A DNA stretch of 64,000 nucleotides from Coriobacteriia bacterium (GTDB taxonomy: Bacteria; Actinomycetota; Coriobacteriia; Anaerosomatales; PALSA-660). The number at the start of each line of letters is the position of its first letter. Positions within the stretch are counted from its first letter, which is position 1. The stretch spans positions 19,892 to 83,891 of the forward strand of contig JAUSBS010000100.1 in NCBI GenBank assembly GCA_030651905.1. Direction: 5' to 3'. Both the position numbers and the translations under genes were made by a program. The notes beneath the pieces are model-generated. The model was not told where the DNA came from, made no database searches, and saw only the letters and a list, made by a program, of their open reading frames with translations. Shown here in pieces: positions 12,482 to 26,993 of this stretch.

Positions 12482-14383
12482 CTACTTCTTCTCGTCTTCG
12501 TCGACGACCTCGAAGTCCGCGACTTCCTCGTCACCGTGCGCGTCGCCGGTTTCGGCCTCGGCACCGGACTCAGCGTCCGCCTGCCCGGTCTGGTAGACGA
12601 TCTCGGCCAGCTTGTAGGACGCCTCCTGGAGCTTCGTCGACGCGGCCTTGATGGCATCGATGTCGTCGCCCTCCAGAGCCTTCTTGACCTCGGCTGCGGC
12701 CTCTTCGACCGTGGTCTTGGTCTCGGCAGGCACCTTGTCGCCGAGGTCCTTGAGTGTCTTCTCCGTGGTGTAGACGAGGGTGTCGGCGATGTTGCGCGCT
12801 TCGACCTCTTCCTTGTGGGCACGGTCCTCCGACGCATGGGACTCGGCGTCCTTGACCATGTTCTCGACCTCGTCGTCGGACAGAGCGGTCGTGCCGGAGA
12901 TGGTGATCTTCTGCTCCTGGCCGGTGCCGCGGTCCTTGGCCGAGACGTTGACGATGCCGTTCGCGTCGATGTCGAACGTGACCTCGACTTGCGGCACGCC
13001 GCGCGGCGCGGGCGGGATGTTGGCCAGGCTGAACTTGCCCAGCGTCTTGTTGCCCGAAGCCACCTCGCGCTCGCCTTGGAGCACGTGGATCTCCACAGAC
13101 GTCTGGCCGTCGGCCGCGGTGGTGTACGTCTCGGTCTTGCGGGTCGGTATCGTCGTGTTCCGCTCGATCATCTTCGTCATCACGCCGCCGAGCGTCTCGA
13201 CGCCCAGCGAGAGAGGGGTCACGTCCAGCAGCAGGATTCCCTTGACGTCGCCGCCGAGCACGCCGCCCTGGATGGCGGCGCCCAGCGCCACGACCTCGTC
13301 AGGGTTGACGCCCATGTGCGGGTCCTTGCCGGTGAGCCCCTTGACCATCTCCTGGACCGCGGGCATGCGGGTGGAGCCGCCGACGAGGATGATCTCGTCG
13401 AGCGCGCCCATCTTCATCCCGGCGTCCTTCATCGCGGCTTCGACGGGCTTCTTGCACCTGTCGAGCAGGTCCGCGGTGATCTTGAGGAATTCGGAGCGTG
13501 TGAGTTCGTAGTCGAGATGCTTCGGGCCCGACGCGTCGGCCGTGATGAACGGCAGGTTGATCTGGACGGTCTGGGCCTGCGACAGCTCCATCTTCGCCTG
13601 CTCGGCCTTTTCCTTCAGGCGCTGGAGCGCCATCTTGTCCGCGCGAAGATCGATGCCGTATTCGGACTTGAACTTGTCGGCGAGCCAGTCGATGACCCGC
13701 TGATCCCAGTCGTCGCCACCGAGGTGGTTGTCGCCGTTGGTGGCCTTCACCTCGTACACGCCGTCGCCGAGCTCGAGGATCGACACGTCGAACGTGCCGC
13801 CGCCGAGGTCGAAGACGAGCACTGTCTGCTCCTTGGAGCCCTTGTCGAGGCCGTACGCGAGCGCGGCGGCGGTGGGTTCGTTGATGATGCGCAGGACTTC
13901 GAGGCCGGCGATCTTGCCGGCGTCCTTCGTGGCCTGGCGCTGCATGTCGTTGAAGTACGCGGGGACGGTGATGACCGCCTGTGTCACTGACTCGCCCAAG
14001 TACGCCTCAGCATCCGTCTTGAGCTTCTGCAGGATCATGGCCGAGATCTCCTCGGGCATGTACTGCTTGCCCTCCACGTCAACGACCGCGCGTCCGTCCT
14101 TGCCCTTCACGGCCTTGAACGCGACCGTCTTGCGCTCCGAGGCGGTCTCCTCGAACTTGCGACCGACGAAACGCTTGATCGACTTGATGGTGTTCTCGGG
14201 GTTGGTGATGGCCTGGTTCTTGGCCGCCTTGCCCACGATGCGTTCGCCGTCCTTGCGGAACGCGACGACGGAAGGCGTCGTTCGATCGCCTTCCGCGTTG
14301 ATGATGATGGACGGCTCGCCGCCTTCGAGGACGGCCATGGCCGAGTTCGTCGTACCCAGGTCGATACCTATGACTTTGCCCAT
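12482..14383 (-). CDS. dnaK: chaperone DnaK (Hsp70)
   Basis: [18 protein letters not shown]..., [10 protein letters not shown], and C-terminal ...[19 protein letters not shown] precedes ATG 14383. The 16-aa ORF extension was rejected. Confidence 0.97.
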
Positions 14384-14440
14384 CGCTGGTGTCTCCTTCT
14401 CGTCCGATGCGAGGCGCCGACGTGGCGCCACCGCCTCCGA

Positions 14441-14840: not shown

Positions 14841-15418
14841 GAGCCCGATCCGGGCAAGCCGGAGGCCTTGACGAGCGCCTTCAGCCGCTCCCACACCTTC
14901 GCCTTGGCCTGTGCGTCCTGAAGTGAGGCGGACAGGCTTCCCACGGCGCCGAGTGTCCGTCCACGTACCGAGACCGGGCGACCCGGTACCAGCGCCTTGA
15001 GTGCGAACGCTGCAGCCAGATCCTCGGCGGCTTCGTCGTCCAGAGCGATCACGAGCCGGGGGTCGACGGCCTCGACGACGAGCTCCAGGCGCCGGGCACG
15101 TGCCTCGAGCGGCGCATCAGCGGGGCGGGTGCAGACAGCCCACACCGAGCGGGGGTCGAGCCCGAGCGCCCCGAGTGCCTTGTCGGCCGCTTCGCCGTCG
15201 GGGCCCGCCAGCACACGTCGAGCGGTGCGGTCGGCCGCCTCGGGCAGCCCCTTGGCGACAACGACCGCCGCGAGCGGGTCGCCGGCCGAGGCGACACCGA
15301 AGGCGACTCCGAGCGCGGCGTCGGCGTCCTTGAGCTCCGCTCGCGCCTTGGCCTCGAAGCGGCGCTGGATCCGTTCGGCATCGTCGCTGGTCACGCGCTC
15401 TGCCTGAAGTAGGCCCAT
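14837..15418 (-). CDS. uracil-DNA-glycosylase-superfamily-like protein lacking recognisable catalytic motifs
   Basis: The pattern VVVAKGLPEAADRTARRVLAGPDGEAADKALGALGLDPRSVWAVCTRP...DPRLVIALDDEAA parallels family-4 UDG topology. The GE(A/G)PG and HPS motifs are absent. An alternative GTG start at 15394 forms a GTGA overlap with the epimerase stop. Confidence 0.45.
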   Translation of the reverse strand: MGLLQAERVTSDDAERIQRRFEAKARAELKDADAALGVAFGVASAGDPLAAVVVAKGLPEAADRTARRVLAGPDGEAADKALGALGLDPRSVWAVCTRPADAPLEARARRLELVVEAVDPRLVIALDDEAAEDLAAAFALKALVPGRPVSVRGRTLGAVGSLSASLQDAQAKAKVWERLKALVKASGLPGSGS

Positions 15419-16332
15419 GTCATGGCGAGTCCGCTCTCCAGGCCCTGGTTCGCCGTCCAGCCGAACATCTCGAGTGCCTTCGCGGGATCGAGCGCACTGC
15501 GCTCCACGTCGCCTTCTCGCGCGGGGAGGCGCTCGAACTCCTTGAGCACCATCGACTCCATCCGAAGCACCCCTGCGATCTCCTCGACCGAGGACTCGCG
15601 GCCCGTTGAGATGTTGTACGCCGGCCCGTCGGGCCCCGGTCCCGCTAGTGGGTCATCCGCGAAGAGCGCGTATATGATGGCGGCCACGACATCGCCGACG
15701 TAGATGAAGTCCCGTGTCTGTCGGCCCGTCCCGTAGATGACCGGCCTATCTCCGGCGGCCAGCTTCGTGGCGAAGATGGCGACCACGCCACCCTCGCCGT
15801 GTCCGTCCTGGCGGGGACCATACACGTTGGCGAATCGGAAGGACGCGAAGTCGGTGCCGGTCCCGGCCAGCGCCCCGGCAAGCGCCGCCTCAGCCTCCAG
15901 CTTCGAGACCCCATACGGGTTCATGGGCCGCTTGGACGACGTCTCTGACAGGGGGACCTCCGCCGGCTCGCCGTAGACCGCCGCGGACGACGCGGAGACG
16001 ACGCGCTCGACGCCGGCTGCAGCTGCCGCCGCAGCGACGGCCCGCGTCCCATCGACGTTGACCGCGTGGTCGCGAGCGGGATCGGCGATGGACGCCTGCA
16101 CATCGGCCTGCGCGGCGAGATGGACGACCGCTTCGGGAGCGAACTCGGCGACGAGGTCCGACAGGCCCGGGTCGAGGATGTCGATGCGCCTGAACCACGC
16201 CGCGGGATGGAGATTCTCGGCGCGACCGACCGACAGGTCGTCGATGACTCCCACCTCGTGGCGTCCGGTGATGAGGGCGTGGACCAGGTTGCTGCCGATG
16301 AAACCGGCGCCGCCGGTTACGAGTACGCGCAT
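15391..16332 (-). CDS. NAD-dependent epimerase/dehydratase (GalE-like)
   Basis: MRVLVTGGAGFIGSNLV is a Rossmann motif; YGVSK is the catalytic YxxxK. ATG at 16332. Confidence 0.85.
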   Translation of the reverse strand: MRVLVTGGAGFIGSNLVHALITGRHEVGVIDDLSVGRAENLHPAAWFRRIDILDPGLSDLVAEFAPEAVVHLAAQADVQASIADPARDHAVNVDGTRAVAAAAAAAGVERVVSASSAAVYGEPAEVPLSETSSKRPMNPYGVSKLEAEAALAGALAGTGTDFASFRFANVYGPRQDGHGEGGVVAIFATKLAAGDRPVIYGTGRQTRDFIYVGDVVAAIIYALFADDPLAGPGPDGPAYNISTGRESSVEEIAGVLRMESMVLKEFERLPAREGDVERSALDPAKALEMFGWTANQGLESGLAMTWAYFRQSA

Positions 16333-16363
16333 CAGCCGTGCTCCTTCGCAGGTCGTGTCCGGG

Positions 16364-17062
16364 TCACTTCGCCGACTCGCCACTTCCCTCGAGGCGCCGG
16401 ACGTCCACCAGACGCGCTTGGACGATGAGGCGCTCGCGGGCGCTGTAGGGGGGATGACACGCCGTGAGCGTGAGCATCGGGTCCTCGGTGTGCGCCACGA
16501 CCTCCACGTGGTCGGGTGTCACCGCGAAGATGCGGACGACCTGGTAGCGGTAGCGGCGATACGGCGAGTAGAGGTCGATGGTATCACCCGATGTGAGCAC
16601 GTCCAGACTCCCGAAGGGGTGCCCGTACGTCGTGCGGTGGCCCGAGATGCCGACGTTGCCCGTCGCGCCCGGCAGATCGGTCGTGGTGATCCAGCCGGGG
16701 CCACGGCGAAGGTCGCCTGCCGCCGTTCCCTTCACGACGACCGTGTCGAGGCCCATCTTCTCGATCACGAGCCGCCCGAACGCTCCGCCGCGCGCGAGGG
16801 AACCCCAGTATCCCCCGTCGGCGGCGTCCCATCCGGAGAAGTCCATGAGGACGGGTTGCGCCGGCGATACCACCGAATTGCCGAGGACGGAAGCGACCAG
16901 CTGCGTGCGCAGGGCCGACTGGTCGAGGTAGTTCACCGCATCGGTGACCCCGACATAGGCCACAAGCCCGAGGGCCGCACCGAGCAGCACGTTGGCCAGC
17001 GCGTGAAGTGAGAGCCGGAGAGGGCCGACCGGCACACTCGCCGCAAGCACCGATCCACTCAT
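16364..17062 (-). CDS. class E sortase
   Basis: N-terminal TM segment, ISGHRTTYGHPF, catalytic TLTAC, and C-terminal RLIVQARL, typical of actinobacterial SrtE. GGGAGGGAGG RBS precedes ATG 17062. Confidence 0.85.
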   Translation of the reverse strand: MSGSVLAASVPVGPLRLSLHALANVLLGAALGLVAYVGVTDAVNYLDQSALRTQLVASVLGNSVVSPAQPVLMDFSGWDAADGGYWGSLARGGAFGRLVIEKMGLDTVVVKGTAAGDLRRGPGWITTTDLPGATGNVGISGHRTTYGHPFGSLDVLTSGDTIDLYSPYRRYRYQVVRIFAVTPDHVEVVAHTEDPMLTLTACHPPYSARERLIVQARLVDVRRLEGSGESAK

Positions 17063-17184
17063 GGCGGTCCGCCTCCCTCCCGCTACCGGCACCACCTCCG
17101 CGCGCTCCCCCACTATAAGTAATCTCACCTGACCTGCCGATATCACTCCTGTACGGCACGTTTGACATCAGGGACGCGAAAGCG

Positions 17185-17290
17185 GCTTCTCCCCGAAAAG
17201 GCACACCCCGCGAAAGCGGGGGTCGCAAAGTCACGGGTCTACCGGAGGGCGAAACCCCTCCCATGACGGCCGGACTGCCGAAGGTGAACG
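17185..17290 (+). promoter_or_regulatory. c-di-GMP-I (GEMM-I)-like riboswitch aptamer, copy 1
   Basis: GAAAAGGCACA-CCCCGC-GAAA-GCGGGG-GUCGCAAAGUCACGGGUCUACCGGAGGG-CGAAA-CCCCUCCCAUGACGGCCGGACUGCCGAAGG aligns block by block with the remembered Vc2 aptamer. That aptamer reads CAGGGCAAA-CCAUUC-GAAA-GAGUGG-GACGCAAAGCCUCCGGCC...GGUAGCGGGGUUACCGAUGG. It sits in the 5' leader of the HExxH gene. Confidence 0.65.
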
Positions 17291-17311
17291 ACCTGACGTC
17301 CGCATGGTGCG

Positions 17312-17367
17312 GCCGGGCCCTCCCGAAGGCGACGCGACCTTCGAGGATGAGCCCGGCTTCTCGTCTC
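17312..17367 (+). terminator. riboswitch expression platform: long GC hairpin plus UUCUCGUCU (putative attenuator), copy 1
   Basis: GCCGGGCCCUCCCGAAGG-CGACGCGA-CCUUCGAGGAUGAGCCCGGC followed by UUCUCGUCUCC. The 5' arm repeats the aptamer box CUCCCCGAAAAGGC as CCUCCCGAAGGC. Confidence 0.45.
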
Positions 17368-17394
17368 CCCGCACGCACAGGGAGTACGCGCACC

Positions 17395-18006
17395 ATGCAC
17401 CGTTGCTCATCATCCACACGACTCATCGCGGCGCTGACGATCGTCCTGATCGTCGCGCTCGTGGTTCCGGCGATCGTGAGCGCGGCACCCGTGCCGTTCC
17501 GGGTCGGTGCGACGAACGCCGGCTCCTCCGCTGCGCTCGCCTCTGTGGCCGAGGAGCACGCCCTCGACGCCAAGACCGCAGCGGTGGCCGCCGAGGCCGC
17601 TGCGTTGGCGGAGCAGCAGCGGATCGCAGCTGCCGCTCTGGTGGAGAAGGAGCGACTCGCGGCGGCGGCATACACGGCGGCCCGGACGAGCGCGAAGAAG
17701 CCGGCCGCCAAGACCGCGAAGATCTCAGGCGGCAGCGAGCTCACGCAGGCACAGTCGATCCTCGCCTCGCTCAGGTCCCGCTACCCCCGCTACCTGTCCG
17801 GAGCCACCGTCTCGATCGGCTCCGCAAAGGGCTACCAAGCGATCTCGTACTACACGTCGGGCCGCATCGTCATCAGCCCGACGCATCGAGCCAGTCTTGA
17901 GCGGATCCTCGCCCACGAGATCTGGCACATCATCGACTGGCGGGACAACGGCCGCATCGATTGGGGCGAGCGCGTACCGCCGAGCAACGCCGCGAGCTAC
18001 CGCTAG
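17395..18006 (+). CDS. secreted protein with minimal HExxH (zinc metallopeptidase-like) C-terminal domain, paralog 1
   Basis: Signal peptide MHRCSSSTRLIAALTIVLIVALVVPAIVSA, an Ala-rich linker, and the conserved C-terminal domain ...YPRYLSGATVSIGSAKGYQAISYYTSGRIVISPTHRASLERILAHEIWHIIDWRDNGRIDWGE. AGGGAG RBS. Confidence 0.75.
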   Translation: MHRCSSSTRLIAALTIVLIVALVVPAIVSAAPVPFRVGATNAGSSAALASVAEEHALDAKTAAVAAEAAALAEQQRIAAAALVEKERLAAAAYTAARTSAKKPAAKTAKISGGSELTQAQSILASLRSRYPRYLSGATVSIGSAKGYQAISYYTSGRIVISPTHRASLERILAHEIWHIIDWRDNGRIDWGERVPPSNAASYR

Positions 18007-18030
18007 CAGCTCGCGCTGAAGGATGCGAAC

Positions 18031-18051
18031 ACCGCCGGGTCATCCGGCGGT
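18031..18051 (+). terminator. hairpin after HExxH paralog 1
   Basis: ACCGCCGG-GTCAT-CCGGCGGT lies 25 nt after the stop. No U tract. Confidence 0.3.
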
Positions 18052-18228
18052 CTGGTCGTGCAGTGGCGCCGACCGGCCGGGCACCCGACGGCCCCTTTCG
18101 GCGTGTGCTGCTGCCGTTCATCGTAATCATGGACCTTCTATAAGCGAGAACCGTCCGACCCTATAAGGGTTCGCCACGTCGGTGCCGATAGTGTGTGATG
18201 TAAGGCACATTGACAGCGAGATGAATAC

Positions 18229-18335
18229 GGGTGCTCCCCGAAAAAGGCACAGCCCGCGAAAGCGGGCGTCGCAAAGTCACGGGTCTACCGGAGGCGGAAT
18301 CCAAGCCTCCCACGACAGCCGGACCGCCGAGGTAG
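18229..18335 (+). promoter_or_regulatory. c-di-GMP-I (GEMM-I)-like riboswitch aptamer, copy 2
   Basis: GAAAAAGGCACA-GCCCGC-GAAA-GCGGGC-GUCGCAAAGUCACGGGUCUACCGGAGGC...GCCUCCCACGACAGCCGGACCGCCGAGG. The P1b stem differs from copy 1 by compensatory changes (CCCCGC/GCGGGG versus GCCCGC/GCGGGC). Confidence 0.65.
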
Positions 18336-18357
18336 AGAACCAGGACTCGAATAAGTC

Positions 18358-18417
18358 GAGACCCGGGTGCTCCGAAGGCAAGATGCGACGGAGCGCTCCC
18401 GGGTCTCGTCTCGTGTC
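18358..18417 (+). terminator. riboswitch expression platform hairpin plus GUCUCGUGU, copy 2
   Basis: GAGACCCGGGUGCUCCG...CGGAGCGCUCCCGGGUCUC followed by GUCUCGUGUC. The 5' arm (CGGGUGCUCCGAAGGCA) duplicates the aptamer 5' segment (CGGGUGCUCCCCGAAAAAGGCA). Confidence 0.45.
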
Positions 18418-18437
18418 AGGTTCTCAAGGGGCGCACC

Positions 18438-19025
18438 ATGAAGTACACGATCAAGTCGCTGGCCACCACGATGATCGCCGCTCTCCTCCTGGCGATCCTG
18501 GTCCTGCCGCTCGCCGGCTCCGGAACCCCGGTCGCCAGCGGTGCATCGATCGCGGCCTCCAAGAGCGCCCCGTTCGCCGCCTACACCAGGCGGCGCCGTG
18601 TGAAGCGCGTCATCAAGCGCCGCAGGGTCCGCCACCATCATCACCGCGTCGTGCGTCGCCGCAAGGTCGCACGGCGCCCGGTCGCCACGGCGCCCGTCGC
18701 CCCGCTGGCCATCGTCGCAGCCCCGGTCGCCCCCACGGCTCCGGTCGTCGACGAGGCCGCTCTCGCGCAGACGATCCTCGACGGGCTCAAGGCGCAGTAT
18801 CCGCGCTACCTCAGCAACGCGACGGTCAGCATGGGAGATGCCATGGGATACCAGGCCATCTCCTACTACACCAGCGGGCGGATCGTCGTCAGCCCGACCC
18901 ACACGGCCACTCTCTCCAGGATCATGAACCACGAGATCTGGCACATCATCGACTGGCAGGACGATGGCGCGCTTGACTGGGGCGAGGCCATCCCGCCCAC
19001 GAACATGAGCACGTACGCGAACTAG
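18438..19025 (+). CDS. secreted protein with minimal HExxH domain, paralog 2 (carries an Arg/His-rich tract)
   Basis: Signal peptide MKYTIKSLATTMIAALLLAILVLPLAG. Polybasic tract RRRRVKRVIKRRRVRHHHHRVVRRRKVARR. The C-terminal domain is mostly identical by eye to paralog 1, including NHEIWHIIDWQDDG. Confidence 0.8.
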   Translation: MKYTIKSLATTMIAALLLAILVLPLAGSGTPVASGASIAASKSAPFAAYTRRRRVKRVIKRRRVRHHHHRVVRRRKVARRPVATAPVAPLAIVAAPVAPTAPVVDEAALAQTILDGLKAQYPRYLSNATVSMGDAMGYQAISYYTSGRIVVSPTHTATLSRIMNHEIWHIIDWQDDGALDWGEAIPPTNMSTYAN

Positions 19026-19047
19026 CTGTCCTGGGCAAGGACCGGTT

Positions 19048-19086
19048 GGAGGGGCCTCCCCGCGCGAGTCGCGGTGGGGCCCCTCC
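19048..19086. terminator. convergent-gene hairpin 1
   Basis: GGAGGGGCC...GGCCCCTCC stem between the converging HExxH-2 and LPXTG genes. Confidence 0.4.
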
Positions 19087-19136
19087 GCCGTTCTCGGTGA
19101 CCGCCATCGGATGCCGTGGATGACCCCGGACATGGT

Positions 19137-19174
19137 GGAGGGCGGGTCGTCTCCGAGGAGATGACCCGCCCTCC
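19137..19174. terminator. convergent-gene hairpin 2
   Basis: GGAGGGCGGGTC-GTCTCCGAGGAGAT-GACCCGCCCTCC, a 12-bp perfect outer stem. It lies 40 nt beyond the LPXTG gene stop. Confidence 0.45.
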
Positions 19175-19213
19175 GGGGGCAAGGACCGGCGGGGTGCGCC
19201 GGGCTTGTCGTCC

Positions 19214-22198
19214 TTATGCCACGCGGTGCGAGACGCGTCGAAGTACCACGCCTGCAAGCGCGAGCACGCCCGCCGCGAGCAGCAGCAGGTAGAGGTCGAT
19301 GCCGGTGAACGGCAGGAACGGCAGCGTCACGACCACGCGCGCCTTGTCCACGTTGTCGACCGGAGTCTTGTCGATCGTCGGATCATCCGGGAAGTCGATC
19401 TTGACGGTGTTGTCGATCTTCGTGCCGTCCGCCACGTCGCTCTTGACCCTCATCTTGTAGACGATGGTCCCGGAGGCATCGGGGAGGAGCGGGCCTGTGA
19501 GGTTCCACGTGATCTTGCCGCCCGACACGGTGCCCCCAGCCGCGTCGACAACGTCGACGTAGCGCTCGTCGTAGTCGTCCACGATCTGGAAGTCGGTGGC
19601 CGAGGCCTTGCCGTCGTTGCCGTAGACCAGCGTGTAGGTGAGGATCTCGTCCGGGTCCGCGATCGTTGGCGTGACCGACTTGTGGATCCAGAGATCCGGC
19701 TCGTCGAAACCGATGAACGGCTCCTGGTTGCCAAAGTCGAGGTCCTGGGTGGAAGAACCGCCCGTGACGGTGACGGGCTCAGGGCTGACCGTGCGAACCC
19801 AGCCCGTCTGCATCTCCTCAGTGAGGAAGTACAGCCCCGGCTTGAGGTTCCCGAACGAGTAGGCACCGCCGGGTCCGGTCGTGGTAGAGGCAACGAACAC
19901 ATAGTCCGCTGGGACCGACGGGCTCTCTTCGCCGCTGGCAGCCAGCATCGGGAGGGACTGGAACAGCTCTCTGATATCCCTGTGCCTGTAGAGATTGATG
20001 GTCCAGCCGGCGAGCAGGGGTTCGCCGATCGCCTTGATGGTGTCGCCGTTGAGGTCGTTGAACTTGACGCCGTTGAGATCGCTGAACTGGGTGTTGCCGA
20101 CCACAACGCGCTTGGTCTGCCCGCCGACCAGCGTGAACTCGACCGGGACCTCGCTCGTCGACTGGTACCAGCCCGTCTCGGAGGCCTCGGTGAGCTTGTA
20201 CGTACCGGGCATCAGGTTCTCGAACGACAGGTTGCCGGACGAGTCGGTCAACGCAGTGAACGTCGCCGTATCGGCCCCCGCGGGCCCCGTCAGTGTGAAT
20301 TCGCGTACGAGACCCGGCTCAGGGGCGTCAAAGATGCCATCACCGTTGAAGTCGTTGAACTTCACGACCTGAACGACCGCGAGCTCCTCGTTGGTGAAGT
20401 CCAGGTTGTACAGGTGGGTGGTGTGGCCGATGGTGGCGGCGTCAGCGGCGCTGTCATAGATCGGCGCGGACTTCTGCACCCAGCCGGTCTCCATGGCCTC
20501 CTCGACGTAGTAGTCGCCGGGCTCGAGGTCGTAGAAGGCCCAGTGGCCGGGAAGGCCGTCGACGGATCTGGTGACCGTCGTGGCGACCGAACCGATGGTG
20601 CCTGTCTTGTAGAGCTTGATGGTCCAGCCGTTGAGGCCGGCCCCGCCCTCGAAGTTGAACTTGTGGCCGGAGATCTCGTTGTCGACGACCTCGTCGTTTT
20701 TGAAGTCCAGGTCGGTCAGGTGGGTGGTGTGGCCGATGGTGGCGGCGTCAGCGGCGCTGTCATAGATCGGCGCGGACTTCTGCACCCAGCCGGTCTCCAT
20801 CTCTTCCTGCACGTAGTACTTGCCGGGCTCGAGGTCGTAGAAGGCCCAGTGGCCGGGAAGGCCGTCGACGGACTTGGTGATCGTCGAGGCGACCGAGGCT
20901 GCGGTGCCTTCCTTGTAGAGCTTGATGGTCCAGTTGTTGAGGCCGGCTCCGCCATCGAAGTTGAACTTGTGGCCGGAGATCTCGTTGGACACCTGTGCGT
21001 TCCCGAAGACTCCGCAATCCTTCGTCTCGGAATGCCCGAGCTGGAATCCACTTGTGATGCCGCTCTTCGTACAGATCCAGGTCTCACCGGCGGGAGCTGC
21101 GCCCTCCGCCAACTTGTAGTAGCCGTCGTCGACGACCCGCTTCGAGGGGTCGGTATCGTCGTGGCTGAAGAACACGAGACCGTTCGAATCGGTGGTCTTG
21201 GTGATCGTCTTCACTACCGTTGTGTACGTGCTGTCTGTGTACTGCGTCAGAACGAACGGCCAGCCACTGATCCAGGGCTCGCCGGTCTCCTGCACGCCGT
21301 CTGCGTCCAGGTCGTGGAACTTCTTGGCTTGGATGTGCGAGCAGAAGTCGGGCTCATCGGCGAAGCGGACGTCGATATGACTGAGGCCGGCCCACTGGCT
21401 GCCGTCACACTCCGTGCCGGATGGCGGGCTGTGCATGAGCGTGTCGTGGTAGCTCCCGTCCGTGCCGAACGCGCTGTATACGTTGGCGTTCGGACCGCCC
21501 TTGACCACCATGTAGGTGACGGGCGCAGTGGACGTCCACGCGAACACCGGTCCGTAGGTGCCGGTGCTCACAGTGATGGTGATGCTCACCGACGTGCCAT
21601 GGTGCAGGAACGAGTATGTCTGGGTGCCGGAGGAGATGGCCCCGGCGCCGGGCACGCCATCCGGAATCCTGAAGTCGCCCGCAACCAGACTCGGGTTGCC
21701 GTCCACTATCGTCGGCTGTACGCCGTCGCCCGAAGGACTGTTCAGCGCGGTCGTGCTCGACACGACGACGCCCATATCCAGCGCGGCAGCCGTGACGGTG
21801 ACGGGTGCGGGCTCCTCCGAGGGTGCCGGATCGGGCGCCGGTGCCGGGTCTGCCGGCGGCGCAGGGTCGGGCGCCGGTGCCGGGTCTGCCGGCGGCGCGG
21901 GATCAGGCGCGGGTGCCGGATCGGGTGCCGGTGCCGGGTCTGCCGGCGGCGCAGGGTCGGGCGCCGGTGCCGGATCAGGCGCAGGGTCTGGCGCTGGTGC
22001 CGGATCGGGCGCGGGTGCGGCCTGCTCCGGAGCAGGCGCATCGATCGCGTACGCGACCGCGACGACGCCAGGACCGGTCATGGCGAACACGAGCACCATG
22101 GCCGTGAGCGCCGCCAACCACTTGCGGATCCATCGAACGTGCGGCCTCGAGAGCGCCATCGTCCTCATCCCCCTGTCCGCGACGCGCCAGCGTCGCAT
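19214..22198 (-). CDS. LPXTG-anchored cell-surface protein with Pro-rich N-terminal tract, SdrD-B/Cna-B-like repeats and DUF11-like domain
   Basis: Signal peptide ...WLAALTAMVLVFAMTGPGVVAVAYA, then (PAPD)n. About 5-6 prealbumin-like repeats (GHKFNF...GW.I.LY...PG.Y...E....GW). A DUF11-like segment (LWIHKSV...ILTYTLVYGNDG). The C-terminus is LPFTG plus a hydrophobic stretch plus RRVSHRVA. Start is uncertain among ATG 22198, 22168 and 22159. Confidence 0.85.
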   Translation of the reverse strand: MRRWRVADRGMRTMALSRPHVRWIRKWLAALTAMVLVFAMTGPGVVAVAYAIDAPAPEQAAPAPDPAPAPDPAPDPAPAPDPAPPADPAPAPDPAPAPDPAPPADPAPAPDPAPPADPAPAPDPAPSEEPAPVTVTAAALDMGVVVSSTTALNSPSGDGVQPTIVDGNPSLVAGDFRIPDGVPGAGAISSGTQTYSFLHHGTSVSITITVSTGTYGPVFAWTSTAPVTYMVVKGGPNANVYSAFGTDGSYHDTLMHSPPSGTECDGSQWAGLSHIDVRFADEPDFCSHIQAKKFHDLDADGVQETGEPWISGWPFVLTQYTDSTYTTVVKTITKTTDSNGLVFFSHDDTDPSKRVVDDGYYKLAEGAAPAGETWICTKSGITSGFQLGHSETKDCGVFGNAQVSNEISGHKFNFDGGAGLNNWTIKLYKEGTAASVASTITKSVDGLPGHWAFYDLEPGKYYVQEEMETGWVQKSAPIYDSAADAATIGHTTHLTDLDFKNDEVVDNEISGHKFNFEGGAGLNGWTIKLYKTGTIGSVATTVTRSVDGLPGHWAFYDLEPGDYYVEEAMETGWVQKSAPIYDSAADAATIGHTTHLYNLDFTNEELAVVQVVKFNDFNGDGIFDAPEPGLVREFTLTGPAGADTATFTALTDSSGNLSFENLMPGTYKLTEASETGWYQSTSEVPVEFTLVGGQTKRVVVGNTQFSDLNGVKFNDLNGDTIKAIGEPLLAGWTINLYRHRDIRELFQSLPMLAASGEESPSVPADYVFVASTTTGPGGAYSFGNLKPGLYFLTEEMQTGWVRTVSPEPVTVTGGSSTQDLDFGNQEPFIGFDEPDLWIHKSVTPTIADPDEILTYTLVYGNDGKASATDFQIVDDYDERYVDVVDAAGGTVSGGKITWNLTGPLLPDASGTIVYKMRVKSDVADGTKIDNTVKIDFPDDPTIDKTPVDNVDKARVVVTLPFLPFTGIDLYLLLLAAGVLALAGVVLRRVSHRVA
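20396..20995 (-). repeat. two tandem 306-bp (102-codon) near-identical intragenic repeats
   Basis: The block beginning GAAGTCCAGGT...GGTGGGTGGTGTGGCCGATGGTGGCGGCGTCAGCGGCGCTGTCATAGATCGGCGCGGACTTCTGCACCCAGCCGGTCTCCAT recurs at an offset of exactly 306 nt (20396 versus 20702). Long runs are identical. Confidence 0.8.
21822..22018 (-). repeat. low-complexity GC-rich repeat encoding (DPAPAPDPAPPA)n
   Basis: Reiterated GGTGCCGGGTCTGCCGGCGGCGCAGGGTCGGGCGCC-type units of about 36 nt. They are in frame within the surface protein. Confidence 0.7.
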
Positions 22199-22477
22199 CT
22201 ACTCGCCGCGGCCGGCTGCTACAGGTATGAGGACGCAGAAGACCGGCCGCCTCGGGCCGGTCTCACGATTGACTCCCCGCCGGTCAAACTCGTGACCGTC
22301 ATGCACACCGGCGGATCGCAGTCTCCCGAATTCACAGTATGTAGTGCACCCCGAAAGCCGTGGTACACCTTGCCCCTGCTGGGCGTTATACCCCCTCGCG
22401 AATGCGCCGGTAAGCCCCCGTTGGGCGAATTCATACCAGAGGATGAGTGGTTTCTTAGAGACGCTCTCGTGCGGGTG

Positions 22478-24874
22478 TCAGGAGTTGGAAACGCGCGGCG
22501 ACCCTTTCGAGCGCTTCGCCGAGGCTGACCTTCCGTCGCACCCGGGTACCAGTGCGCGGTCGAGGACCTGGTCCATGTGGTCGACGGGGACGATCTCCAT
22601 CTCGTCGCGCACGTGGGGCGGGAGCAGTTCGAGATCGCGGACGTTCTCCTTCGGGATGAGGACCGTCTTGATGCCCGCTCGGTGTGCCGCGAGCAACTTC
22701 TCCTTGAGGCCACCGATCGGCAGGACGTTGCCGCGCAGGGTGATCTCACCCGTCATCGCCACATCCCTGCGGACATGGCAGCGCATGAGCGCCGACGCCA
22801 TGGCCGTGGCCATCGTGATGCCGGCGGAAGGGCCGTCCTTCGGTATGGCGGCGGCCGGAACGTGGATGTGGATGTCGAGCTTCTCGTGGAAGGCCTCGTC
22901 GATCCCGAGCTCCTTCGCATGGGCGCGTATGTAGGAGAGCGCGGCCTGCGCGGACTCTCGCATCACGTCGCCGAGCTGGCCGGTCATCGTCAGCTCGCCC
23001 TTACCGGTCATCGTCGTCGCCTCGACGAAGATGACGTCGCCGCCGGCCTCGGTCCACACCAGCCCCGTCGCGGCGCCTACTTCGTCGCGCTCCTCGGCCA
23101 TGCCGAAGCTGAAGCGCGCCGGCCCCAGATACTTCTGAACGTTGCGGACCGTCACGCGCGTCTTGCCCTTGTGCCCCTCGACGACCTTGCGCGCGACCTG
23201 TCGACAGATCGAAGCCACCTGCCGTTCGATCCCGCGGACACCGGCTTCGCGGGTGTAGCGCCGGATGATCTCGTGGAGCGCGGAATCGTCGATCTCGAGC
23301 TTGCCCGGCGTGAGGCCGTGCTCCTTCACCTGCTTCGGAACCAGGTACTGACGCGCGATATGGAGCTTCTCGTCCTCGGTGTATCCAGGGAAGTGGATGA
23401 CCTCCATGCGGTCCTGCAGCGCAGGCGGGATCGTGTCGAGCAGGTTCGCCGTCGTGATGAACATGACGTCGGACAGGTCGAACGGCGCCTCCAGATAGTG
23501 GTCCTGGAAGCTGTTGTTCTGCTCAGGGTCGAGTACTTCGAGCAGCGCGGATGTCGGGTCGCCTCGGAAGTCGGCCCCCACCTTGTCCACCTCGTCCATC
23601 ATGAAGACCGGGTTGCGCGTTCCGGACTGTGAGATCGACTGGATGATGCGGCCCGGAAGCGCGCCCACGTAGGTGCGGCGGTGCCCGCGGATCTCGGCCT
23701 CATCGCGCACGCCACCGAGTGACATGCGGATGAACTTGCGGCCCAGTGATCGCGCGATGGACTTGCCGATCGAGGTCTTCCCGACGCCGGGAGGGCCGAC
23801 GAAGCACAGGATGGGGCCGCGCATCTTGTCGGTCAGCTTGTGCACGGCCAGATACTCGAGCACGCGCTCCTTGACCTTCTCGAGTCCGTAGTGGTCCTCG
23901 TCGAGGCCGCACTGGGCCTCGAGGAGGTCGAGCCTCTCGTCGTCCATCGCCGTCCACGGCAATCCGACCAGCCAGTCGAGATACGTGCGGATGACGCCGG
24001 TCTCGGCGGCAGCCTGAGGCATCTTCTCGAGGCGGCCGAGCTCCTTGAGCGCCTTCTCCTCGACGATCTCGGGCATCCCCGCGGTGCGGATCCGCTCCTT
24101 GTACTCGTCGATCTCGGCCTGAACCTCGTCGAACTGACCGAGCTCCTGCTGGATCGCCTTGAGCTGCTCGCGCAGGAAGTACTCCCGCTGGGACTTCGTC
24201 ATCTGGTCTTTGACGCGGCTCTGGATGCGGCTGCCGAGCTCGAGGATCTCGAGCTCCTTGCGAAGGAACGCCCCGGCCTTCTCGAGGCGGGTCTTCGGTT
24301 CGATGGCCTCGAGGATCACCTGCTTCTCGTCGACCTTGAGGTTGAGGTGGAACGCGATGAAGTCAGCGAGGCGGCCGGGCTCCTCGATCGAGCCGGCCGC
24401 CATCAGGACCTCCTGCGGTATCGGCTTGCCGAGTTCGGCAGCCTTCTCGAAGTCGGTCACGAGCGCCCGCATGAGCGCCTGCGTCTCGACGTCGGCGGTG
24501 CCGACCTCCTCGATGAACTCGACCTTCACCTTGAGGTACGGGTCCGAACCGATGAACTCCTTGATGCGGATGCGCTTGACGCCCTCGACCAGCGCCTTGG
24601 CGGTGCCGTCCGGCAGCTTGAGTTCCTGCAAGACGTTGGCGACGCAGCCGATCTCGTACATGTCCTCAGGGGATGGATCCTGGGTCTCCGCGTGCTTCTG
24701 GGTCACGAGCGCGACCTGGTGGCCGCCGCGCATAGCCTCCTCGAGCGCGACGATCGAGCGCTCACGGCCGACGAAGAGCGGCACGACGAGGTTCGGGAAC
24801 AGGATGAGGTCCCGCAGCGGTATCAGCGGGAGTTCGTCCGGGGTCTGATCGAGGTTCTCGGGCTGTGCGGACAT
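22478..24874 (-). CDS. lon: ATP-dependent protease Lon
   Basis: LON N-terminal domain ([23 protein letters not shown]), Walker [10 protein letters not shown], and catalytic [17 protein letters not shown] at 24874; the 100-aa upstream ORF extension was rejected. Confidence 0.95.
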
Positions 24875-25046
24875 GCGACGACCGCCTTTGTCGAGGGATT
24901 GCGGTACTGTGGTCTCGTTGACTGTGTGTTCGGTATAGTACCCGTCCCCCCTGCCCGCGCGTCGCAACGGCGGTCTCGCGGGGCCGCCATGCCTACATCG
25001 TCGCTCCTGGGGGCGAACCGTGCGCCACCCCTCTCCGACAGCACAC

Positions 25047-26993
25047 ATGAGGCTAGCCGCCGCCCTCTTGGGCGCCGCCCTGATCATGGGAGCGGCGGCC
25101 GGAGCGTGGGCCGCGCCGGCAGAACCGTCCGCGCCACGGGTCGTCCTGCGGCGCATCGAGGGACTCACTACCACTCAGGGCACGCTGGGCGCCGAAGTCT
25201 CCGTGGCCCTCCCGCGACAGATAAGCGGCATGACCGTCCGCCTTCGTCTGCTCGCGGCCGACGGCACGACCGTCTACCAGAGCACCCAGACGCGGGGGCG
25301 GCTCGACCCGGGAGCGTATCAGTTCAGCTTCCAGCGCGACTTGTCCTCGGTCCGCATGAAGGAGGGCGTCTGGACACTCGAGGCCCGTGTCCGCGCGACC
25401 GGCTCCGCGGCCGTCGTCGTGAGCGAGCCGCTCTACGTGGTGGGCCCGGACCGGGAGCCTCTCCCCGTCGCCATCGTCGTCCGGTTCGCCGCACTTCCGA
25501 TGTCCGATCCCATGGGACGCTTCGTCATCGATCCAGCCCAGGAGCCATCGATACGATCCGAGATCGACGCGCTTGCCCGCCTGTCCGCGCTGAGGCCCGA
25601 TCTGCACCTCACGGCCGCCCTGCCGCCGATCGTGCTCGATGAACTGCGTCAGGTCGCCGACGGCTACTCTCTTGATCAGACCGGCACGGCCCCCGTGACA
25701 CAGGACGCCGCACCGTGCGCCGCCGCCGCATCGACGCTCGCATCGTTGCGTCAGACACTACGCTCCGACGCGCTGACCCTGGTTGGCGTGGGCTACGCGG
25801 ACCCCGCCTGCGACGGCCTTGAGGCCATAGGCGCCATCGATGACCTCGCCCTGCAACTCTCGCTCGGCGCCACGGTGACGAGCGAGACGCTCGGGGCTGT
25901 GACCACCGCCGGGGCAGCAGTCCACGGCGACGCGCTGCCCCGCGCGGCCCTCGCCGCACTCGCGGCGCGCCAGACCACCTTCGTGCTGCTCGCTCCCGGC
26001 TCCGTGCGCTCGGTCTCCAAGAACAAGGAGTCCTCCGCGAGCCCGGGAGCCTACGCGATCGTCGACTCGACGGCGACCGCGCTCGTGTTCGACCCCGTCG
26101 CGTCGGGACTCTTCGCGGGACCGGCGGGTGACGGGCGCGCCGCGCTCGGCCACCTGTTCGCCCGGCTGACGACCAGGCCGTCGAGGAGTGCTCCCGTCGT
26201 GGCTGTCGTGGACGTCGGCCCCGGGTCTCGAACCTCCGTGAACGATCTCCAGGCGCTGCTCGCCGTGCTGGCGCGGACGGGGTGGGTCACCCTTGTCGAT
26301 GCTCCCGAAGCCGCATCCATGGTGACGTCGGGGACCACGGTGGTGCTGCCGGCCTCCACCGCCTCCGTGACGATCGCCCCGTACTGGAGCGCGGTGGCCA
26401 CTGCGCGCGAGCGCGTAATGGCGCTCCAGGAGGCGGTAGGCCCGGCGGATGCGGACGCCGAGACGGCCGTACGGGCGCTGCTCGTCGCCGAGAGCGCGGC
26501 GTGGAGCATCGACACGTCCGGAGCAGTCGAGCGGGGTGCCGCGTTCTCGGCCGCCGCTGACGAGCGAGCGTGGAGCGTGCTGTCCAAGGCAACGCTGGCC
26601 GTCCCGAACGTCACACTGTCGGGCAACGCCGGTCGCGTGCCGGTGAGCATCAACAACGCCACGGACCGCCCGATGCTGTTGACGCTGCGCATGCGGCCCA
26701 AGGGTCTTCATCTCAAGCGCGGCTCCGAGATCACATTCCTGGCCTTGCCCGGCGAGAACATCCAGTCCGTGGCGGTCGAGATGGGGACGTCGCTTTCGGG
26801 CGCGGTGCACTTCGATCTTGCAGCAGGCCGGCTGACGGTCGCTTCGGGTGACGCCACCGTTCGCGCGTCATACATCGACCGCCTGGCGATACTGCTCGGT
26901 GTCATCGTGGTCTTAGTCGCCCTGCTCTGGTACATAACACGGAGAGGTCCGGACGCTCTCGACCGACTGAGGAAGGCTGCCGACACACGCTGA
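25047..26993 (+). CDS. secreted protein with C-terminal TM anchor (DUF6049-like, tentative)
   Basis: Signal peptide [23 protein letters not shown]-terminal helix [18 protein letters not shown] followed by basic residues. The size and the position upstream of trxB/trxA resemble the actinobacterial DUF6049 locus, from memory only. Confidence 0.65.

Follow-up and report, generated by a model that had tools for sequence, protein, structure and literature searches.

In Clostridioides difficile, the secreted zinc metalloprotease PPEP-1 (Zmp1/CD2830) is under the control of a class I c-di-GMP riboswitch, and the sortase-anchored LPxTG adhesins CD2831 and CD3246 are under class II riboswitches (PMC11477304, PMC8610288). 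The protease gene adjoins an adhesin gene there (CD2830/CD2831) and the substrate adhesins carry Pro-rich segments. In Paenibacillus alvei, the protease PPEP-2 and its surface-protein substrate VMSP have c-di-GMP riboswitches in 'group A' (PMC8610288). PPEP-2 is a Pro-directed Firmicutes protease with an M34/PPEP domain, and its substrate is linked to the S-layer.

Here we describe a module spanning 16.4–22.3 kb of the window (the whole stretch of 64,000 nucleotides that was analysed) in an environmental actinobacterium of the class Coriobacteriia. The module appears to be a counterpart of the C. difficile adhesin/protease switch that was put together independently, with a protease of no detectable sequence relation to PPEP-1. 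As in C. difficile, a class I riboswitch precedes each gene of a secreted, predicted metalloprotease, a class II riboswitch precedes the gene of a sortase-anchored, Pro-rich adhesin, and protease and adhesin genes are neighbours; as in P. alvei, the secreted metalloprotease and a surface-anchored protein, here a candidate substrate, are both under c-di-GMP riboswitches. The locus differs from that of C. difficile in its lineage (Actinomycetota instead of Firmicutes), in its GGC and GAG variant riboswitches, in having two paralogous proteases, and in a sortase and an epimerase that belong to a conserved Coriobacteriia cluster. On balance, we lean slightly towards reading it as a c-di-GMP-controlled cell-surface attach/detach module in which the adhesin and its shedding proteases are regulated oppositely.

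Organization of the locus and its host

The order of the locus is sortase, class I aptamer with a secreted 203-aa HExxH protein, class I aptamer with a secreted 195-aa HExxH protein, convergent LPFTG adhesin, and the class II aptamer upstream of the latter. The features are as follows.

15391-16383, minus strand: NAD-dependent epimerase/GDP-mannose 4,6-dehydratase-like gene, overlapping the sortase stop codon (Pfam Epimerase E = 4.2e-58, GDP_Man_Dehyd E = 1.3e-49)
16364-17146, minus strand: membrane sortase (Pfam Sortase E = 1.1e-29)
17191-17283, plus strand: c-di-GMP class I aptamer (GGC variant), leader of zincin 1 (RF03167 68.2 bits; RF01051 74.7 bits)
17395-18006, plus strand: secreted minimal-zincin protein 1 (P0026, 203 aa), with a Sec signal peptide, an Ala-rich linker and a ~90-aa HExxH domain at ~17704-18006 (HEIWH at 17914-17928)
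18237-18332, plus strand: c-di-GMP class I aptamer (GGC variant), leader of zincin 2 (RF03167 62.5 bits; RF01051 65.8 bits)
18438-19025, plus strand: secreted minimal-zincin protein 2 (P0002, 195 aa), with a signal peptide, a polybasic R/K/H segment and an HExxH domain at ~18720-19025 (HEIWH at 18930-18944)
19214-22159, minus strand: sortase-anchored, adhesin-like LPFTG surface protein (P0003), with a PAPD repeat, SdrD_B/SpaA isopeptide-stalk domains, DUF11, LPFTG, and a TM segment with basic tail
22246-22335, minus strand: c-di-GMP class II aptamer (GAG variant), leader of the LPFTG gene (RF03169 55.2 bits, gathering score 40)

A preliminary description of this DNA had listed four kinds of element, namely a class E sortase, GEMM-I-like leaders, secreted HExxH proteins and a 994-aa LPXTG protein with a Pro-rich tract, and Pfam, Rfam and ORF inspection recovered all of them at or close to the positions that it gave. 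The sortase itself was clearly identified. Its class E label is tentative, because the best NCBIfam model (class_E_sortase) scored 107.8 bits, below the trusted cutoff of 160; the class D and class C models scored lower.

The host has a large and active c-di-GMP network, with at least seven GGDEF, at least four EAL and at least nine HD-GYP domains. The only c-di-GMP riboswitches detected in the genome were those of the module. As the only riboswitch-level c-di-GMP output of the genome, the module offers a tractable test of the GGC and GAG variants against their ligands.

Conservation of the module in relatives

The preliminary description had left it to related genomes to decide whether this neighbourhood is conserved, and the conservation was strong. 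The whole module, with class I aptamers before the zincin gene, a class II-GAG aptamer before the LPFTG gene and the sortase and epimerase alongside, was found in dozens of Coriobacteriia genomes, and the same arrangement is seen in many families of the order. A class I aptamer preceded the zincin gene in 10 of 12 20-kb loci and in 13 of 20 genome-contig loci, and a class II-GAG aptamer preceded the convergent LPFTG gene in 9 of the 12 20-kb loci. The zincin gene was adjoined by the sortase in 69 and by an LPFTG protein in 60 of 80 genome-contig loci; the epimerase adjoined the sortase in all 12 relative loci and in 67 of the 80. Sortase and zincin had identical phylogenetic profiles. Since the aptamers matched with E-values of 1e-8 to 1e-14 per window and the gene order is kept in dozens of genomes, the matches of the locus are far beyond chance.

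Riboswitch leaders of the zincin and adhesin genes

Both leaders of the zincin genes lie upstream and in the sense orientation, and both exceeded the gathering scores of RF03167 ('c-di-GMP-I-GGC', 59) and of the canonical RF01051 (35). The GEMM-I-like leaders proposed earlier are therefore class I aptamers by RF01051 and RF03167, with the qualification that they fall in the GGC variant family. In most relatives, the corresponding class I leaders are canonical c-di-GMP-I.

With RF01786, the canonical class II model (gathering score 53.5), the leader of the LPFTG gene reached only 40.4 bits; it was recognized by the GAG model. No other class II aptamer, and no canonical one, occurs in the host genome, and every class II leader recovered from relatives belongs to the GAG family. 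This leader, lying just upstream of the LPFTG gene, had been overlooked in the preliminary description. With a class II leader of its own on the adhesin gene, the locus becomes a closer parallel to C. difficile.

The terminator scan revealed no intrinsic terminators in the leaders of the module, and over all aptamers scanned they followed only 2 of 25 class I and 1 of 10 class II aptamers, so that a transcriptional-attenuation sense of the leaders could not be inferred. When the leader RNAs were folded with and without the enforced aptamer, no switching of the RBS was seen in either state; folds of the aptamer alone did not reproduce the Rfam structure. Given the missing terminators and the folding without RBS switching, control by the leaders is probably translational.

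These results bear on an alternative in which the two riboswitch classes act in the same direction or bind different ligands, the GAG class II aptamer perhaps another cyclic dinucleotide, for example c-AMP-GMP. Two signals would then be integrated, or adhesin and protease would be made together, as in biofilm matrix remodelling. The literature searched gave no established ligand for the Rfam variant families GGC and GAG. The margin of the GAG model over canonical class II (55.2 vs 40.4 bits), the uniform occurrence of GAG leaders in relatives, and the absence of a riboswitch sense from leader folding and the terminator scan all speak for it. However, an active c-di-GMP network in a host that lacks any canonical class II riboswitch suggests that the GAG variant serves as its class II receptor for c-di-GMP, and the canonical c-di-GMP-I leaders of most relatives also argue against this alternative. 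We regard this alternative as unlikely. That both leader types belong to variant families nevertheless leaves their ligands putative, which counts against the shedding reading.

The HExxH domain is a predicted minimal zincin

Both zincins carry Sec-type signal peptides. No Pfam family was found for their HExxH domain. In an alignment of the domain family (A2), H-E-x-x-H, two D, W and E were invariant in 37 homologues; the invariant D78, D81 and E89 (A2 numbering) are candidate third zinc ligands, and the C-terminal segment of the AF2 model has low pLDDT.

The AF2 model (pLDDT 83) has strands at residues 35-57 followed by a helix at 65-82 bearing HExxH, the β-sheet and active-site helix that define a minimal zincin or minigluzincin (MA-clan-like) fold. 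The best Foldseek matches were the minigluzincins selecase, abylysin and jannalysin (PDB 4QHF, 4JIU, 4JIX; E 0.015-0.15). In VIA-align, SPRTN (6MDX) scored highest (Z 8.3), the archaeal minigluzincins reached Z 6.6-7.6 (abylysin 7.6) and anthrax lethal factor reached Z 5.3. The structural neighbours in the ESM Atlas were SprT/YgjP zincins. The ~90-aa domain is thus confidently predicted to be a minimal, gluzincin-like zincin, and a non-protease fold, which the preliminary description had kept in view, did not emerge.

The archaeal minigluzincins, at ~100 residues and with the same β-sheet and HExxH helix, are the nearest solved relatives of the domain. We know of no secreted bacterial protease as small as this domain, which, together with the archaeal source of these relatives, counts against the shedding reading. 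The minigluzincins are intracellular, whereas the Coriobacteriia zincins are secreted, with signal peptides and variable N-terminal tails (polybasic or Ala-rich). The SprT/SPRTN and YgjP/M48-like minimal zincins, which resemble the domain in VIA-align and in the ESM Atlas, are likewise intracellular, being DNA-protein-crosslink or other proteases, and have neither secretion nor a sequence relation to the Coriobacteriia proteins.

The earlier proposal that the HExxH proteins are unrelated to M34 PPEP-1 agrees with our searches. The four zincin domains gave no match to Pfam PF07737 (ATLF) at E<=10, and the A2 profile matched no PDB sequence, PPEP-1 entries included. PPEP-1 was also absent among the top-50 structural matches listed by Foldseek and VIA-align, an absence that does not in itself indicate a different fold. 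ATLF clusters occurred among the ESM feature neighbours at 0.86-0.87, under the level of 0.9 that counts. A PPEP/ATLF-type domain has ~200 aa compared with ~90 aa here, and the families of PPEP-1 and PPEP-2 have no detectable sequence relation to the Coriobacteriia zincins.

A non-catalytic role of the domain, be it in signalling or as a chaperone or zinc-binding partner for the adhesin, would accord with its unusually small size and its lack of a Pfam family. We consider this highly improbable, since the invariance of HExxH and of the downstream acidic residue (E/D) in the 37 homologues implies selection for catalysis, and the predicted fold matches active minimal peptidases.

The LPFTG surface protein and the proposed switch

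P0003 has the marks of a sortase substrate, with an N-terminal signal peptide and a C-terminal LPFTG motif (~19301-19315), behind which come a hydrophobic segment and then a basic tail, and is probably anchored by the neighbouring sortase. It is the largest among the few LPxTG-type proteins of the host, and its C-terminal region is homologous to the LPFTG proteins whose genes converge on the zincin gene in related genomes. Its sole Pro-rich stretch lies near the N-terminus as a PAPD/PAPAP repeat (~21778-22045), encoded by a DNA tandem array (21828-22016). In other LPFTG orthologues, the Pro-rich acidic segments are shorter or absent.

In the attach/detach reading, the neighbouring sortase would anchor the adhesin to the cell wall. 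By analogy with C. difficile, the class II (GAG-variant) riboswitch would turn the adhesin mRNA ON at high c-di-GMP, and the class I riboswitches would turn both zincin genes OFF. When c-di-GMP drops, the zincins would be made and would release the adhesin from the surface by cleaving it; the most plausible sites are its Pro-rich or stalk segments. The directions of switching, the protease activity and the adhesin as substrate are all three what we infer.

The position of the Pro-rich stretch, N-terminal and not near the anchor where PPEP-1 cleaves, counts against shedding: cleavage at this place would take off no more than a ~90-aa tip and would not release the adhesive domains. It is thus also an argument for a second alternative, in which the c-di-GMP-controlled module is real but the zincins act elsewhere, on host or environmental proteins or on surface proteins of competitors, or in processing and maturation of the adhesin instead of its release. 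Nothing in the open ~90-aa zincin fold points to a specificity, and the polybasic N-terminal segment, a trait of the P0002 subfamily, may hold the protease at the cell envelope, where it would act on other surface targets. The zincin gene is nevertheless conserved convergent to and beside the LPFTG gene and the sortase and not near other substrates, a position that suggests the adhesin as partner; we therefore judge action on other targets to be improbable.

If the attach/detach reading is true, the c-di-GMP logic of making an adhesin or making its removing protease, known from C. difficile and the Paenibacillus PPEPs, would have arisen again in Actinomycetota with an unrelated, tiny zincin. 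The logic would then rank as a general principle by which c-di-GMP governs surface dynamics in Gram-positive bacteria, and secreted minimal zincins of ~90 aa, a family that is widespread but uncharacterised, would acquire a biological role. More speculatively, and with considerable doubt, these zincins may form a new family of Pro-directed (Pro-rich-linker) endopeptidases, recruited independently and convergent with the Firmicutes PPEP family, that shed or trim the adhesin of many environmental Coriobacteriia under c-di-GMP. They would then contain the smallest secreted protease domain known from bacteria. A second nucleotide signal may enter through the GAG class II riboswitch.

Gene starts and a chance database match

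A single-sequence PDB search with P0001 matched only ATP-synthase b, which was judged to be a chance match. The real start of zincin 1 is M45, where the database protein P0026 begins. The LPXTG protein reported earlier as 994 aa with a Pro-rich tract is present and has this length as called; from its probable start at M14, P0003 has 982 aa.

Organization of the locus

Within the window, an epimerase-like gene and a membrane sortase gene adjoin a unit made of a class I c-di-GMP aptamer and a gene for a secreted HExxH protein. This unit is present twice in tandem on the plus strand, and a gene for an LPFTG surface protein converges on it.

Features of the locus (coordinates in the window, strand, description)
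15391-16383, minus: NAD-dependent epimerase/GDP-mannose-4,6-dehydratase-like gene (ORFs, Pfam/NCBIfam)
16364-17146, minus: membrane sortase (ORFs, Pfam/NCBIfam)
17191-17283, plus: c-di-GMP class I aptamer 1 (RF03167, c-di-GMP-I-GGC, 68.2 bits; RF01051, 74.7 bits)
17395 (probable start, M45), plus: secreted HExxH protein P0026, 203 aa, 3' of the first class I aptamer
18237-18332, plus: c-di-GMP class I aptamer 2 (RF03167, c-di-GMP-I-GGC, 62.5 bits; RF01051, 65.8 bits)
18438-19025, plus: secreted HExxH protein P0002, 195 aa, 3' of the second class I aptamer
19214-22159, convergent to the zincin genes: LPFTG protein P0003, 982-994 aa
22246-22335, minus: c-di-GMP class II aptamer, GAG variant (55.2 bits, gathering score 40)

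The epimerase-like gene overlaps the sortase stop codon in the ORF map; modification of a surface glycan or of the adhesin is a possible function of its product. Class E was the top NCBIfam model for the sortase (107.8 bits, under the trusted cutoff). The first-start ORF call of P0026 overlaps the aptamer (17263-17394) and that of P0003 is too early (22160-22198); the real starts are probably M45 at 17395 (Shine-Dalgarno sequence AGGGAG) and M14 at 22159 (AGGGGG), respectively. Long antisense ORFs opposite P0003 (19205-22528 and 21558-22295, both plus) were rejected as high-GC reading-frame artefacts; one of them encodes GAGSG repeats and lies antisense to the PAPD repeat of P0003. The module is flanked by the housekeeping genes dnaK (Hsp70; 12482-14431, minus) and lon (22478-25174, minus), and no island signature was found in the GC profile around it.

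Riboswitches and c-di-GMP signalling in the host

Both class I aptamers scored above gathering with RF03167 and also matched the canonical RF01051. The preliminary description had listed these two leaders correctly and had overlooked the class II-GAG aptamer of P0003 itself, which sits directly upstream of that gene and scored only 40.4 bits with the canonical class II model RF01786. No c-di-GMP riboswitch besides these three was found anywhere in the host genome (1.88 Mb, GC 67.6%, 96.5% complete). The same genome encodes at least 7 GGDEF, at least 4 EAL and at least 9 HD-GYP domains; despite this large complement, the riboswitch outputs are confined to this module.

Since both kinds of aptamer belong to Rfam variant families, it may be argued that c-di-GMP is only their putative ligand. 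It is nevertheless the favoured one, because the host c-di-GMP network is busy and most relatives carry canonical class I aptamers. Intrinsic terminators were not found in the leaders, and control is therefore probably translational.

Fold of the HExxH proteins

P0026 and P0002 both carry a Sec signal peptide and share a conserved C-terminal domain of about 90 aa, while their N-terminal tails differ, with a polybasic R/K/H segment in the P0002 subfamily and an Ala-rich helix in the P0026 subfamily. The domain gave no family match in Pfam or NCBIfam. In alignments of 44 homologues (A1, and A2 for the domain family), mainly from metagenomes and Coriobacteriia MAGs, HExxH and downstream D-x-x-D and W-x-E motifs were invariant. 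In the AlphaFold2 model of the domain (37-sequence alignment; pLDDT 83, pTM 0.73), a helix and a three-stranded sheet precede an active-site helix with HExxH, which is the architecture of minimal zincins. The best Foldseek matches were archaeal minigluzincins, namely selecase (4QHF/4QHI, E 0.015, TM 0.55), abylysin and jannalysin. VIA-align gave Z scores of 8.3 for the SPRTN protease, 7.6 for abylysin, 6.6 for selecase and jannalysin and 5.3 for anthrax lethal factor, and ESM Atlas placed the structure near SprT/YgjP zincins. From this architecture and these neighbours, the domain is modelled as a minimal zincin peptidase fold with predicted catalysis, and groups by fold with the minigluzincin/SprT-like proteins. 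To our knowledge, the solved members of that group are neither secreted nor tied to surface proteins.

The proteins had been described as apparently unrelated to the Clostridioides difficile metalloprotease PPEP-1. This is supported, as neither the profile search of PDB sequences nor Pfam linked the domain to PPEP/ATLF, and PPEP-1 is twice as large; by sequence and size, the zincins fall outside the PPEP family. PPEP-1-like action, if present, would on these grounds be a separate recruitment of a zincin and not the work of a PPEP homologue.

Conservation of the module

The genome search found the zincin domain in 25 of 41 relatives, across most families of the host's order. Among the 20-kb loci of 12 of these relatives, sortase and epimerase orthologues (50-65% identity) adjoin the zincin in every case, and a class I aptamer, canonical or GGC, lies 5' of it in 10. 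In nine, the genes for the zincin and for a large LPFTG protein converge, and the C-terminal region of the latter is homologous to that of P0003; nine have a class II-GAG aptamer 5' of the LPFTG gene (in one case with tandem class II). A wider scan of genome contigs gave 80 zincin loci, mainly from Coriobacteriia and Actinomycetota MAGs of soils, sediments, wastewater and biofilms, with Slackia sp. and Coriobacteriaceae bacterium EMTCatB1 among the named carriers; EMTCatB1 is in culture and has the module. The zincin was adjacent to a sortase in 69 loci, an epimerase in 67 and a P0003 homologue in 60, and a class I aptamer preceded it in 13 of the 20 genome-contig loci scanned.

Sortase and zincin have an identical phylogenetic profile. 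The module is patchy within the host's own family, and the phylum-wide search gave strong matches in the host's order only. Conservation of gene order and regulation across many families argues strongly that the module genes work together, and we are confident that the locus is a conserved c-di-GMP-controlled adhesin/sortase/secreted-zincin module. A divergent zincin subfamily (about 48-53% domain identity; relative loci L073, L078, L079, L088, L093, L100 and L102) lacks the sortase, epimerase, LPFTG protein and class I riboswitch, and is thus independent of the module.

Proposed mechanism

P0003 has a signal peptide, an N-terminal PAPD/PAPAP repeat, SdrD_B/SpaA prealbumin-like stalk domains, DUF11 and a C-terminal anchor of LPFTG (about 19301-19315), hydrophobic segment and basic tail. 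The repeat is encoded by a DNA tandem array (21828-22016; periods 30/36/54 nt), and its length could vary between strains.

In C. difficile, c-di-GMP shuts off PPEP-1 through a class I riboswitch and switches on the sortase-anchored CD2831 and CD3246 through class II riboswitches, so that these adhesins are shed at low c-di-GMP (PMC11477304; PMC8610288). Riboswitches of PPEPs are reported to be confined to C. difficile and Paenibacillus group A (PMC8610288). The parts of the Coriobacteriia locus, their signals, riboswitch classes, modelled fold and conservation are established. Because the C. difficile system pairs the same riboswitch classes with the same types of gene, we lean towards inverse c-di-GMP control of an adhesin and its shedding zincins, a working mode like that of PPEP-1/CD2831 and of PPEP-2/VMSP in Paenibacillus alvei. 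With directions taken from C. difficile, high c-di-GMP would lead to synthesis and sortase anchoring of the LPFTG adhesin (attachment, biofilm), and low c-di-GMP to release of the minimal zincins, which may cut the adhesin in the Pro-rich PAPD repeat or the stalk. Two points speak against this reading: P0003 has its one long Pro-rich tract at the N-terminus, so that cleavage there would trim the tip and not free the adhesin, and both kinds of aptamer come from variant families.

By this analogy, the module would represent convergent use of class I and II riboswitches for opposite regulation of adhesin and protease in Actinomycetota, with a secreted zincin that is unusually small and unrelated to PPEP-1. 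Should the zincin prove to shed the adhesin, inverse c-di-GMP control of an adhesin and its sheddase would have a second, independent example, the first from Actinomycetota.

Other sortase substrates

Only about four LPxTG-type proteins in the host genome are genuine, P0003 being the largest. A second sortase gene lies outside the window (C105:4930-6721) beside a gene for an LPNTA-motif protein, forming a class-D-like pair.
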